Of a stretch of DNA of 64,000 nt, positions 28,925 through 47,100 are shown one piece after another (within the stretch, counting starts at the first letter, position 1; every line of letters starts with the position of its first letter). The notes under the pieces were generated by a model. The model was not told the origin of the DNA. It saw nothing but the letters and a program-made list of their open reading frames with translations, and made no database searches. Location: NCBI GenBank assembly GCA_951406725.2, contig OX597829.1:19530001-19594000 (forward strand), read 5' to 3'. Position numbers and translations under genes: made by a program. The DNA comes from Octopus vulgaris (lineage: Eukaryota).

Positions 28925-28989
28925 ATAACAATGTAAACACAAAAAGAAAGTGAAACGAAGTTTTGTGATAACAGTTTTTATTTTTTATT
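28925..28989 (-). terminator. Canonical polyadenylation site (minus strand)
   Basis: Two AATAAA hexamers (28989-28984, 28982-28977), CA dinucleotides at ~28967-28964, then the U/GU-rich tract ttcgtttcactttctttttgtgtttac. Confidence 0.55.
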
Positions 28990-29959
28990 TAATTCTTTCA
29001 TAAGAAAGGAGATTGAGTGAATTTCCGATGCTTCGAAGAAAATTATGCTTCTGTTTGATGATTGAATCTTAATGTGGAATGAAAATTTTCTGCACAAAAT
29101 GGAGCAGGGAATATGATTTCCAATAAGCCTGATAATTTCAGTTTATGGAAGTAGCAGCTAAATTCTAATATCAAAGGAGATTGATGAAAAACACCAAAAA
29201 TCTCCGTTTTGATGAAAACTAAAACACTATGGGTGTTTTTGTTTAGAGAGATTTGTAAGTTTGATGTTTCAAAGGGGGATAGAAGAACAATTTTAGTAGA
29301 CAAGATACACTCAAAAGGCAAGTTCCATCATGGTATGTGTGCGAACTGCCATAATCAAAGACTTGTCAGTGTCAATAGCAATTGAAAGAGAAACAAATAC
29401 CCCAAAATGGAATAATGGGAATGGTAGTGATAGAGGAACTACTTTTCATTAGTATTAGTAGAAAAATGACATGGAATTGTCAACCCATAAATATGGAAGG
29501 GAAGAATCAGCAGAACCACAAGGAATCTTTGATGCTACAAGATCATTCATAGTAAAGCAAAAACAGAAAAGGAAACTTTCAAAGGAACTGAAGGACACAG
29601 CTGCAAAATTAGAGACATCAATGGAACTAGTCTCCAAATGGCAATAGCTAACACACTAAAACGAACTGATGATAAGATATAGGATTCCTGACAGAAACTA
29701 TGGTAAAGAAGGTTATGACAGATGTTACAGATATAACTTTTGAGCCATGAAAATCAAGCAGCATAGAGGATAGGTTATTAAAGCGTGAAATCTATTTCAG
29801 GTTTCGAAATGTATTTAACAGGGAACTGACCCCAAAACAGAAAGAAAATTTCAGGAATGATAATTGATCCCAAGATATCTTTTTTTTATATACCAGCAGA
29901 AAGCAAAGTGATAGCCAAAGATCTCTGATAAATAACATTTCCAAGCAAACAAGCAGTTA

Positions 29960-31900
29960 TATTTGCCAGGAGACAAACTCCAAATAGCAACAGAAGAGAT
30001 TGAAACAGAAACGGGATGTATCAGGGAACATCCAGAAAGCAAGAATAGGATGATTGAGAAAAATAGTATGAGTAAAAGTACCAGGGGAACACCCCAAATA
30101 GCAACAGCAAATATATAGTGCTGCATCAGAACATCCGTATTTGGCAAAAGAAAAATGATTAGGATACATTACCAAAAGACAATAAGAAAGGCAGCCACCG
30201 GTAATTTTGCCAGGGATATCCCCAAATGGCATAACTAAAAACATTGCCAGGGAATATTCCCAAATGGCAATATAAATACCATCATTAAATTTCAAAATAA
30301 CAGAAACACTGCCAGGGGAGATATCCCCAAATGGCAATACAAAAACAATGAGACAACCTCCACCGGTAATAGAACAAAATATGAGAAAGGTATTGTACTA
30401 GGAATATCCTCAATGGGAAATATTACCAGGGAATGACCTCAAATGTTACCAAGAAAAAAATGGCAACTGAATCAAAATCTGGGTATATGGCCTGATAATA
30501 AATCCCAAGGTAGGGTTTTAAAACACTATGAGAGAATATTTTATTATATATAGTAAAATATAAAACATATTTTACTATATGTGTATGGCAAGAAAAAGAA
30601 AAATAGATAAGCAAGAAAGCCAGGGGACATCTCCATATAGCAAGAGAAATAAAATAGTATCTAAGGACAGATATCTCTAAATGTAAGACAAATAGATAGT
30701 AGTTGAGAGAAATATATAGCACCAGAGGACAGACATCCTCAAGTAGTAAGACAAAGAAAAAGAGGTAAGAAAAATATAATAGCACTTAGGAAGATATCCT
30801 CACACAGCAAGATAAATCGAAGGAAGAGAAACTATATAGTGCCAGGAGATGGAGACAAATAGATAGAAGAAAGAGAAATATATATGATGCCAGGGGACAG
30901 CTATCTCCCAAATGGCAAATCAAATAGATAGAAGAGAAATACATGCCAGGGAACTTAGTCCCAAATGGCAATGTAGAGATGAGAAGAATAAAATAGCATT
31001 TAAGAACAGATATCTCCAAATGGCAGTTAAATAGAGGTAAGAGAAATATTCAGTACCAAGGGACAGATATCCCTATATTGCAATATTGATAAATAGATAT
31101 CAGAGAAATAAAATAATGCCAGGGGTTTAGATGTTTTCATATGGTAAGTTTAATAGAGGTAAGAGAAAATAAAAAGGGCCAGGGAACTGATATTCCCATA
31201 TGGCAAGGGTGAGTGCCAGGGGACATCCCCATATGGCAAGAGAAGTAAGTAGTTGCAGGGGTTACACCCCCATGGCAGGAAAATTAGATGCAAGTAAGGA
31301 CAAAAATAATTAGCACAAGGGTATAAATGTACCCAAGTAGCAAGAGAAATAAACAGTGTCAAGGGTCATACCCATATGGCACAAGAAGCAGATATAGATA
31401 GAAGTATAATACATACACACAAATATAGTGCCAGGAAACAGATGTTCCAAAATGGCAAGCTGAAGGAAAAGTGATAAGAAATAGACATGAGCAAGAGAAA
31501 TAAGTAGTGCCAGGGGTTATACCCAAATGGCAAGAGAAATAGGTATAGTTATGGTTTAATGCTATTTTTTAGCACCAGGGGACAGATAGCCCCAAATGGC
31601 AAGAGAAATAAAGAGTGCCAGGAGACATCCCCAAATGGCAAGAGAAATATGTGTATAGCCAGGGAACAATACTAACTGGCCAGAAATAAGCAGCATATTT
31701 TAGCAAGAAATATATTTATGGCACTAGAGTATCTGTCAAGATATCTCTAAATGGAAGAAATACAGATAACCCCAGAGGATATATATATATATGGCAACAA
31801 AAGTAGTATCAAAGGATGCCAAATGAGAAGGGAAATAGCACCAGGGGACATTCCCAAATAGCAAAATATATAGTGCCAAGGAACATTCCCAAATGGTAAA
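29960..31900 (-). repeat. Array of ~30 degenerate bulged stem-loop units with variable pyrimidine-rich linkers
   Basis: Plus-strand consensus GCCA-GGGG(A)-loop-(T)CCCC-AAA-TGGC-AAGAGAAAT. Clear copies start at 29965, 30080, 30209, 30246, 30311, 30619, 30721, 30889, 30945, 31055, 31178, 31215, 31430, 31509, 31574, 31617, 31840 and 31875. Confidence 0.9.
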
Positions 31901-44137: not shown

Positions 44138-44194
44138 ACTTCCGGTTTAGATGGATTAAGACCAATCTGGCAGCTACTCATTTGCATATAAAAG
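44138..44194 (+). promoter_or_regulatory. Promoter-like motif cluster (ETS, CCAAT, octamer, TATA)
   Basis: ACTTCCGG at 44138, CCAAT at 44162, ATTTGCAT at 44180 overlapping TATAAAAG at 44187, in a CpG-rich segment. Confidence 0.35.
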
Positions 44195-47100
44195 TAGACG
44201 TTTGGGCGCGCTCATCCTGGCATCTGTTTATAATCTCAACATCGCTAAATTGATTTTGTTTATTCATTTAAGATGTTCCCACAAAAGAGCAATATTAATG
44301 CATAATGCACGTTTGAATTAGCTTTATATTTAAATAAAAGGAAAAGCATTTTTACCACTTTCAGAGACCCTACTACAGATTCAATTAATTCAATTCTTGA
44401 CAAAAAACAAGTCTCGGTTACTTCAAAAGTAATTCTTGTCACAAAAATTTTTCTTTTACTCTCTTAGAGAGCATTAATATTCCCTAATCTTTACACTCCG
44501 GTCACGAGTTCAATTGAATTTGTACTATTGCAACAAACTGTTCCCTATATTGTGTATGCGAGTTAATTTAATAAACTACGCATTTCCACAAGAAGAAGAA
44601 ATATTCAAAAATTATTTTAAACGTTTTCATTTAAGACGCAATTATTATATGCCCTCCATTTCAAGATAGATATCTTTTCTGTTTATCTGTTTTATCTCCA
44701 CATACCCTTTTCCCGCCTCTTTCCTCGCCTTTACCCTCTCTCAAAATATTTCATCATTTCTAAATGAATATCTTTTTTCTCTCCCTTCGTTACTCTCTTC
44801 CTCTCTATGACCTCTTTTGTTATCGCCCACTATCTGAACTTTACTCTATCTTTTTTATGCTCTTAATCCATTAGTGCAATAAACGTCCGTGCTTATTTCC
44901 TCTTCTACAATGCGGTCTTACAGTTCAAACAGACAATAATTGTAACCAATTCGAATACAAAAACCAAGGATTAGGTTGTTGGTTTCTTTCTTTTTTCTTT
45001 TTTGGCAAAGTTAAAAGTCAGCAAAAAGTTTCAATTGGGGGGAAAAAATCACATTAAATTATGAGAATTATGAGCCACGCATTGGATTCATTTGAAAAAG
45101 AGAGAATATGAGAGACTGCTGGATTAGGAAAAGGATTAAATCGATTTTTACTAGTCAAATGTTCCTTTATTGGATACAGCTCCAAAGTGTTTCGTCTTGT
45201 GTTTGAACACGAAATTCGTGTATTTTATAATCTTGAAAATTTAATACCAGATCTTTCCGGCGAAAGATTTTCTTTTCTGCTACTCAAGCCAGAATTTAGG
45301 CCAGATACAAATCATTCCATGAATGACCAAAATAATTAGGTAAATATTTCGTAAAGGACCCATTCGTACCTCGGCACCTATTTTTTTTTCCACGGTTTTT
45401 TTTTTATCGAGTATCTGACCTCCAAAACTCGCCGCAAGCCACTTTTTCCGGAAACAAAAGCGGGTAAGGGGTCACAAAATTATTTCAGTCAAATATCGGT
45501 GGGTCCTTTATCGCAAATAGCTGTTAAGTGGTAGAAGGGACTGCTAGAAATAGCAGGCAAATATTTCTTTTTCTGGAGAAAGGAGCCGTTTACTTTATCA
45601 ACACTAATTGCCAGCTTCCTTGACTAATTAATGAGTAATTATTGCCATAAGCTGAACATAAATTATCTTTTATAACAGTAGTTAGCTCGTTACCAATCAT
45701 TTGATAGTTACCGTTTCGAACGATCGGTCATAGCTGAAAAACACGAGGGATCGAATCATAACGCGGTCGTTCGAACTGCTAAAAATTGCAGTCGAGTCTC
45801 CTTCAAATCACATTCCAACATTTTAAAATAGAGAGAAGTCATTGGAAAATGTGGTTCTGAGTAATAAAAAAAAATGGGATGGTCATGAGTCATTGTTTTT
45901 GAATCAAAGATCTCGATCAGAGCAGGCCAGGGGCTAAACAAAGGGAAGTTTATGTGATATTGCGGTATGTTTTAAATAAGCTTGTTATGATCTCAACGAC
46001 GAAGTGTGTGTGTGTGTGTGTATGTATCTGAGTAAAATTCTAAGAATGTTAAAATATTTGATTTCCGCAATAGAAACTAGAAACGTGAGATTAGTATATA
46101 ACAATCAGCATTTCTTTATTTATAATCTGATTTTGATAATCAGTTTTAGAATGGGGGAAAAAAGGCGAAAGAAACGAATGAATAGTAACAAGGATGTAAA
46201 ATAAAATATGAGCACATATTAATAAAAAAAATTCATAAATTATTAAAGGTCACAGTAAACGAGAACGTAATTTCATAAGTGTACAAAGAATACTTAAATG
46301 CAAAGACTGAATTTAATTACATTGCAATTTTCTCACACACGTACCCTCATGTGCGTATGTGTAATTATTAATACGGAATACATATACTCATGTTCTGAGC
46401 TATTTTCACACACACACACACATACATATAAATGTATCTATGTATGTATATATATATAATACATATACACCATTATATGTATATTGATATACACATGTAT
46501 ACGTTATATACGAGTAATTATGTGTATATATATATATATATGTATATATTACATATAAATTTGCTATACACACACACATGTATACCCCACCATTATATAT
46601 ATATATATATATATATATATATATATATATATATATATATATATATATCAACTTCGTGGCCCTTCTAATGTCAATATAATAACTGAAGATAATTAATTAA
46701 AAAATGTGAAGAACTTACCTCAAAAATTATACCCAGACACAAGATGCGTCAATTCTCCCTCTCACACTTTTTTTTTTTTTTTTTTAGGATAAAGAAAAGA
46801 TATAATCAAATAAATTTTGATCATTATGCTTTCCTTTCAATGTAGAATTACATTGAAAATATATTGTATATATTATTTTAATATATACTTTGAAAGGGAT
46901 GGGGTGAGAGACAGTTGACGCTTAAGCACAACAACCATAGTCATACGGTTGTGGCTGAATCTGCACTAATGAGACAAATAGTCCTTTACAGTTTATAAAG
47001 TCTTCGAAAACATTGGGGTGTATTACTACGCCCCTGCTATTTACTATACATTTGAAAAACGAATTCAGAAAGTGATTTAATATATTTTTATTTACTTAAA

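Follow-up and report, generated by a model that had tools for sequence, protein, structure and literature searches.

An apparently single-copy array of predicted hairpins is a candidate working domain of the male-specific octopus RNA Zmast

Introduction

In the A-repeat domain of XIST, repeats alternate with U-rich linkers and form inter-repeat duplexes, and the words GAUAC, GUAUC and GAUAUC are tied to SPEN binding (PMC10870365), with four or more repeats being needed for tight binding of SPEN (PMC10870365; PMC7282817). Tandem stem-loops with U-rich elements lie in the 3′ region of roX1 and roX2 of Drosophila (PMC7528653), and Rsx of marsupials, a repeat-domain long non-coding RNA (lncRNA) of the homogametic sex, is reported to have evolved independently and to lack linear similarity to Xist (PMC6633197). 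Here we analyze a 64,000-nucleotide (nt) stretch of the Octopus vulgaris genome (contig OX597829.1, positions 19,530,001 to 19,594,000, forward strand; hereafter the window), which holds the gene for Zmast (OCTVUL_1NCB338440), a male-specific lncRNA of chromosome 16, the Z chromosome (Papanicolaou et al., bioRxiv 10.1101/2024.12.09.627507; hereafter the preprint), and describe an array of predicted hairpins in its last exon.

The octopus sex system has no W chromosome, and the preprint places Zmast in ZZ males, with a male bias of 256-fold (~990 versus 3.8 transcripts per million (TPM) in 17 male and 23 female paralarvae, which were sexed by Zmast itself) and expression in 3-day paralarvae and every tissue tested. 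Compensation of the Z is partial and varies gene by gene (male:female 1.12), and only 48 genes differ between the sexes in paralarvae, 39 of them Z-linked (bioRxiv 10.1101/2024.12.09.627507). These figures for male specificity and compensation are the preprint's values, the present analysis being one of sequence. The Zmast transcript is thus already known and the gene is not a discovery; a literature search found no further paper on Zmast or on cephalopod compensation lncRNAs. The preprint text names no strand, neighbor, repeat or structure for Zmast: it has no hits for hairpin, stem or structure, and its lone 'repeat' is a wash step, although figures or supplements may describe the array. We therefore present the array as a candidate working domain, undescribed in that text.

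Results

The locus is Zmast

A search of the species' own genome placed the window at 19,530,001-19,594,000 of chromosome 16 (C16), an offset of 19,530,000, and the interval singled out by an initial annotation, made from the sequence alone, falls at 19,558,960-19,576,770, matching the published position of Zmast (19.559-19.577 Mb). The published locus is 18,007 nt long, with a 7098-nt exon at its low end and exons at 19.575004-19.576972 and 19.576719-19.576972 Mb (bioRxiv 10.1101/2024.12.09.627507). Less the offset, its limits become window positions 46972, 46719, 45004 and 28965-28966, and 28965..46972 differs by one base from the stated span. Among the sites read from the sequence, the donor at 46719 is exact, and the acceptor at 36062 and the poly(A) end at ~28965 lie within one base; the 18-kb span, the 254-nt first exon, the 7098-nt last exon and, within one base, both ends agree between published model and sequence. 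Because the preprint coordinates agree with the window features and with the position of the window on C16, the locus is, with near certainty, Zmast. All three PF14828 matches to Amnionless, the host locus of the female RNA Zfest, also lie on C16 (30.14-30.16 Mb), so that Zmast shares its contig with a Z marker. The Z-linked, sex-biased lncRNA that the initial annotation had suspected is therefore this published gene, its chromosome assigned here and its bias taken from the preprint; the role in dosage compensation that it had also suggested is a hypothesis here, as it is in the preprint.

The terminal exon carries an array of diverged units

The array and its immediate surroundings comprise the following features.

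29600..31910, minus strand: array of ~25 diverged 25-31-nt units (16 strict, up to 29 loose), from sequence scan and alignment
31911..33330, minus strand: U-run-rich segment just 5′ of the array, from a count of U runs
28537..32952, no strand: largest interspersed-repeat-free gap in the window, 4416 bp, from repeat intervals

The array occupies 2.3 kb, nt 4407-6717 of the 7352-nt RNA or about a third of Zmast, and the published 7098-nt exon (36062-28965) spans it, in keeping with the multi-kb, array-bearing terminal exon that the initial annotation had drawn. Each unit is laid out as a 5-bp lower stem, a 3-nt U-rich bulge, a 4-6-bp G:C upper stem and a 3-8-nt loop (consensus UGCCA, a UUU/UAU bulge, GGGRA, 3-8 loop nucleotides, UYCCC, UGGCA). 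The linkers between units are U- and pyrimidine-rich (43% U, 64% pyrimidine) and rich in UUUCUCUU, with 11 copies versus 0.5 in shuffles. Just upstream in the RNA, runs of at least six U occur at 8.5 per kb in 31911-33330, versus 0-1.7 in the other four segments.

A two-arm scan recovered 16 units, all on the transcribed strand at 29990-31899; the rest of the window has none on either strand. The addition by eye of 13 weaker units gave a 29-row alignment, and a profile built from it finds 25 units at E < 0.03 (by construction), its best match outside the array having an E of 0.22. Units are irregularly spaced, 33-223 nt apart. The array is old, with cores kept better than linkers, because mean identity is 67% in cores and 46% in flanks.

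The array lies in the largest gap (28537-32952) among the 87 interspersed-repeat intervals of the window, a context that we counted for function. The initial annotation had seen no short interspersed element (SINE) at ~28.6-32.9 kb, and the gap bears it out; the repeat library consisted of the window and fetched loci, so repeats are undercounted. The terminal exon is not repeat-free overall, as it holds repeats at 32953-33110 and 33776-34084 and a low-copy repeat near 34.4-34.65 kb.

No second copy of the array was found in genome searches. An origin from a transposon was considered and rejected, given the missing second copy and a single 99-bp match (E 7.6e-5) at the AT-rich edge of the array. 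The idea of a DNA motif dispersed along the Z and bound there was likewise discarded: the two-arm pattern has 15 matches in the genome, nine of them in the array, none elsewhere on C16 and six on C17, and the 13-nt left arm has 45 matches, three in the array and one elsewhere on C16 versus ~0.9 expected by length. Five of the six two-arm matches on C17 sit in an unrelated multi-kb repeat. That C17 family (L021, L023, L024 and L025) has multi-kb copies that share 92-98% identity and carry long inverted arms on either side of a GA microsatellite, and it contains a chance look-alike of the Zmast unit. In the 80 kb around Amnionless, the Zmast motif had no match at E up to 10, and the largest repeat families there are simple and minisatellite repeats only. 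Minisatellites of 21 nt and 20 nt occur in this Amnionless/Zfest region (L010:5086-5407 and L010:9567-9986). Metagenomes returned 14 single matches, none of the 14 with a second unit. Finally, DRACH, the consensus for N6-methyladenosine, is not enriched in the array (21 versus 21.4).

Pairing within the array

The support for conserved pairing is moderate, and we consider the array probably functional at the RNA level. Across 315 stem cells of the alignment, 77.5% can pair, versus 39-54% when the arms are slid; two-sided changes number 15 (reached by 6 of 500 shuffles), the covariation score was reached by 12 of 500, and anchored upper stems alone show 10 two-sided changes (reached by 32 of 2000). 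G-U outnumbers A-C in stems, 39 to 18. Changes from U to C are found in 0 of 86 stem cells versus 50 of 452 non-stem cells, and since such a change would break U-A pairs, their absence from stems was counted for structure.

A 911-nt part of the array folds at z -3.6 on the minus strand. In the global minimum fold of the whole array, 11 of the 29 units pair with other units, with the 3-nt bulges kept, and adjacent units are predicted to be able to form bulged duplexes of 21-25 bp. GAUAUC occurs nine times in the array versus 0.8 in shuffles, and GAUAC, GUAUC and GAUAUC together 14 times versus 4.7 expected. Sliding 120-nt folds give a weak signal, with a mean z of -1.36 (minus) and -0.77 (plus) for the 12 in the array and -0.56 (minus) and -0.47 (plus) for 27 outside it. 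The most stable local fold within the array, at 30400-30520 on the minus strand (z -5.5), is a long irregular stem unlike the repeat units, and a near-perfect AT-rich hairpin at ~30535-30575 adjoins it.

A scaffold model and the evidence against it

Our tentative proposal is that the array gathers proteins as a multivalent scaffold and so dampens expression from the Z in ZZ males. We rate this chain of steps, taken whole, a serious possibility falling a little short of an even chance. The units would fold in the RNA as bulged hairpins or inter-unit duplexes, and the repeated stems with their U-rich bulges and linkers would bind RRM or dsRBD proteins many times over, with SPEN-type, PTB-type or DHX9/MLE-type proteins as candidate binders. 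Zmast RNA would stay near its site of synthesis and spread on the Z in cis, and the proteins gathered on it would reduce transcription of one male Z or of both. We infer the steps of in vivo folding, protein binding, retention in the nucleus and repression; identity with the published locus, gene anatomy, the lack of an open reading frame (ORF), the array and its absence elsewhere in genome searches were observed directly. The genome has three SPOC-domain matches, among them a full SPOC domain at the end of an 860-amino-acid open frame, which may or may not belong to a SPEN.

Several observations weigh against this proposal. The preprint text holds no localization, binding or knock-down data on Zmast, reports Z-to-autosome ratios near 1 in both sexes, and reads the ratios as up-regulation of the female Z, which needs no male repressor (bioRxiv 10.1101/2024.12.09.627507). 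RNAalifold returned no consensus structure for the alignment of 29 units, and three of five pairing measures were not above shuffles (76, 85 and 141 of 500). Folding is equally good on the opposite strand (z -3.7), and unit energies of -8.0 versus -7.4 between the strands (p 0.052) show no strand preference. Units were chosen with both arms as bait, 13 of the 29 by eye, which favors pairing, and the copies are related, so that cells are not independent. Mutation with a strand bias may account for part of the G-U excess, the transcribed strand being U-rich; duplication alone can explain the enrichment of GAUAUC, which in single-unit folds sits at the stem top and loop, not in the bulge. Rfam gave 128 matches at E up to 5, of which none was to Xist or another lncRNA family and none reached the gathering score, and the array is known from the O. 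vulgaris genome alone.

The absence of a strand preference in folding energy and the weak covariation would also suit a decaying minisatellite, a functionless passenger in a sex-biased RNA whose self-complementary ancestral unit, as a palindromic founder, would have left a hairpin in every copy for free. We consider this improbable, as it sits poorly with the irregular spacing of the units, the better-kept cores, the lack of U to C changes in stems, and the 4.4-kb gap in interspersed repeats within a region otherwise dense in them.

Comparison with Xist, roX, Rsx and miR-2954

Seen against the described systems, the array has, as far as sequence can tell, a layout like that of the Xist A-repeat and of roX without homology to either. 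Like the Xist A-repeat, the Zmast array belongs to a lncRNA of the homogametic sex, has short GC-rich units alternating with U-rich linkers, is predicted to form hairpins or inter-repeat duplexes, and carries GAUAUC and GAUAC words (PMC10870365). For the A-repeat feature of an unpaired A presented in GAUAC, GUAUC or GAUAUC by inter-repeat duplexes, the Zmast sequence offers the predicted duplexes of 11 of its 29 units and the excess of these words. Unlike Xist, it has ~25 diverged units rather than 8.5, compensation is partial, and inactivation is not part of the published Zmast data. The Zmast array lies in the 3′ half of its RNA; the Xist A-repeat lies at the 5′ end. The first Xist A-repeat hairpin has the loop AUCG. 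No hairpin of this GCCCAUCGGGG type was found, the count of CCAUCG in the array being 0, and the predicted Zmast loops are mostly AUGU, AUCU and AUAU, on a stem of polarity opposite to that of the A-repeat.

Zmast resembles roX in being male-specific and in its 3′ layout of tandem stem-loops with U-rich elements (PMC7528653), but roX acts in the heterogametic sex and activates, whereas Zmast is found in homogametic ZZ males. One-mismatch matches to the roX box number 36, as many as expected by chance, and none lies in the array; the Zmast motif is not dispersed along the Z as DNA sites. With Rsx it shares the character of a repeat-domain lncRNA of the homogametic sex (PMC6633197), its repeat domain making up about a third of a 7-kb RNA; the two are set side by side by layout.

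Zmast is also like miR-2954 of birds (PMC12408383): both are male-biased non-coding RNAs encoded on the Z, and in both systems compensation is incomplete. This precedent in ZZ males, together with the 21-25-bp bulged duplexes open to adjacent units, raises the alternative of a small-RNA precursor, in which cleavage of inter-unit duplexes would yield small RNAs of nearly the same sequence that, in males, direct the degradation of mRNAs from Z-linked genes. miR-2954 is a single microRNA (miRNA) acting after transcription, and no small-RNA product is known for Zmast. The Zmast duplexes fall short of the roughly 35-bp stems that Drosha needs and have more bulges; the long RNA is present in abundance, and the best Rfam match in the array has an E of 0.93. 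We rate a precursor role as very unlikely. The unit sequences were not found in four supplement files of an octopus miRNA paper, but these hold no usable sequence list, and the largest carries no O. vulgaris miRNA names either.

A switch rather than a chromosome-wide damper

The expression data bear on another alternative, in which Zmast is part of a switch for sex determination or differentiation that senses the dose of Z and works on a small number of targets through splicing, translation or a downstream gene, the array being a protein sponge or guide rather than a chromosome-wide damper. An all-or-none, 256-fold expression difference from a 2:1 difference in dose would fit such a switch, as would the presence of Zmast in 3-day paralarvae and all tissues tested and the lack of a W chromosome to carry a determiner. 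The excess of the pyrimidine-rich linker word UUUCUCUU would fit too, as pyrimidine-rich words of this kind resemble PTB-type sites. However, switch-like expression is equally expected of a compensation RNA, and the Z linkage of 39 of the 48 sex-differing paralarval genes points to Z dosage rather than to a broad sex programme; we hold the switch to be unlikely, and retain the scaffold model as our tentative preference.

Anatomy of the Zmast gene

The gene that carries the array is organized as follows.

46992..46997, minus strand: TATA-like box (TATAAA), ~25 nt upstream of the annotated 5′ end, from sequence
46719..46972, minus strand: exon 1, 254 nt, with a TCATT start and a GAG/GTAAGT donor at its end, from the preprint exon minus the offset and sequence
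36063..46718, minus strand: intron 1, 10.7 kb, with SINE-like repeats and AT microsatellites inside, from sequence
28965..36062, minus strand: terminal exon as published, 7098 nt, from the preprint and matching length
35915..36062, minus strand: putative 148-nt exon of an alternative form, absent from the preprint text, from sequence only
35583..35914, minus strand: putative 332-nt intron, retained in the published model, from sequence only
28940..28989, minus strand: poly(A) site with two AATAAA, a CA cleavage site and a U/GU-rich downstream element, from sequence, within one base of the published 3′ end
45004..46972, minus strand: preprint isoform T2, unspliced, 1969 nt, from the preprint and sequence

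Zmast is transcribed from the minus strand because five features fit the published limits: a TATA/initiator-like start, the donor, a U-rich acceptor, the poly(A) signals and an A-run at the end of T2. The initiator-like TCATT at 46972, which the initial annotation had missed, is the annotated start; the window holds 48 copies of the TATA-plus-initiator pattern, most of them within AT microsatellites, and the weight of the pattern at 46997-46972 therefore comes from position alone. The donor GAG/GTAAGT at 46719/46718 is one of only two AGGTAAGT on the minus strand of the 64 kb, the acceptor at 36062 follows a U-rich tract, and the AATAAA signals lie at 28989-28984 and 28982-28977, with the CA site at ~28966. 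The longest ATG-initiated ORF in either spliced model has 95 amino acids, inside the shuffle range (mean 76, 95th percentile 112; 200 mononucleotide shuffles of the three-exon model), and Zmast is non-coding. The spliced, polyadenylated minus-strand lncRNA read by the initial annotation, with its strong donor at 46719, well-formed poly(A) site at ~28960 and lack of a credible ORF, thus matches the published Zmast model.

In the preprint model the 332-nt intron is retained, and T2 counts as an isoform. The putative second intron (35914-35583) has a weaker donor, TTG/GTAAAT, at 35915 and a good acceptor at 35582, and may represent an alternative form. The acceptor region at 36065-36057 (minus) reads CAG/GTAAC, and joining exon 1 to it rebuilds a donor, from which recursive splicing to the acceptor at 35582 could skip the 148-nt piece; two further acceptor-like sites lie near 35657 and 35641 (minus). 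T2 is likely a product of oligo(dT) internal priming on pre-mRNA rather than a real isoform, because its end at 45004 abuts a genomic A-rich run (45004-44980, minus) and has no hexamer just upstream.

Genomic neighborhood

One coding gene lies on the other side of the poly(A) site.

1601..21106, plus strand: last ten matched coding pieces of a convergent STXBP4-like gene (coiled coil, WW; stop codon 21104-21106), from protein matches

The convergent STXBP4 of the initial annotation is confirmed as an STXBP4-like gene, with 15 tblastn pieces, all on the plus strand, five of them upstream of the window and the last ending at 21103. Its WW exon has STXBP4 as best PDB match (E 2.3e-7), and relatives of the protein carry PDZ and WW domains, four of nine being named syntaxin-binding protein 4-like. 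The gene ends 7.9 kb from the Zmast poly(A) site. This convergence, with compensation that is partial and variable between genes, could suggest that Zmast acts locally in cis, via its transcription or its RNA, on neighbors such as the STXBP4-like gene or on a sub-region of the Z, the array stabilizing or retaining the RNA. At ~990 TPM, however, Zmast is far above the RNA needed locally, it has no overlap with the coding exons of STXBP4, and the stretch that separates the two genes contains 12 AATAAA on the plus strand, making local action distinctly unlikely relative to the scaffold model.

The initial annotation had also raised the possibility that the array is the 3′ untranslated region (UTR) of an upstream mRNA. 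This is unsupported: exon 1 has a TATA/initiator-like start, and a crude screen that covered 19 of the 122 candidate ORFs in the 57 kb upstream found no minus-strand coding exons, its Pfam hits being limited to long interspersed element (LINE)-type ORFs in two of the 19. LINE-type endonuclease and reverse-transcriptase ORFs with Pfam hits lie upstream of Zmast (L017:8583-9998 and L018:484-1695), and ORFs resembling Penelope-like elements occur at L020:5429-7063 and at window 39379-39816 (weak GIY-YIG hit). Peptide fragments at window 56930-57372 (minus) and L018:6928-7188 (plus) look by eye like what we take to be Helitron helicase/Rep pieces; they gave no Pfam hit at E 0.01.

Two more interspersed-repeat-free stretches of ~3 kb were seen, at 23750-26764 and 45829-49116. 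The former, between the STXBP4-like gene and the end of Zmast, is possibly a long 3′ UTR or another constrained element, and the latter covers the Zmast promoter; no repeated promoter elements beyond A/T runs were found in 46.7-49.1 kb. Around the promoter, a broad CpG-retaining domain of 17 kb (35.6-53 kb) has observed/expected (o/e) CpG ratios of 0.74-0.81, with depleted flanks (0.23-0.32); the terminal exon stands at 0.23, the STXBP4 gene body is depleted, and the array is the most CpG-depleted part (o/e 0.11). Of the two CpG-richer segments in the initial annotation, that at 45-46 kb holds (o/e 1.0-1.09) and that at 47.5-48.5 kb does not (0.63-0.69, not above its surroundings); the two islands are in fact one broad CpG-retaining domain.

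Discussion

The basis for a dosage-compensation role in the preprint is expression only, and the array adds a handle to it. The sequence also fixes the strand, promoter and poly(A) site of Zmast and flags T2 as a likely priming artefact. Experiments gain a precise target in this 2.3-kb domain of repeated predicted stems, which is apparently single-copy and resembles in layout the domains through which Xist and roX work. In a bolder version of our proposal, which we regard as doubtful, the oldest known sex chromosome would have in Zmast its own counterpart to Xist, and an A-repeat-like array of bulged hairpins, evolved independently in an octopus lineage, would recruit SPEN-type repressors that damp the Z of ZZ males. 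If true, this would be a further convergent origin of repeat-domain compensation RNAs and the first in a spiralian. The array makes the balancing of Z dose in a roughly 480-million-year-old ZZ/Z0 system directly testable.

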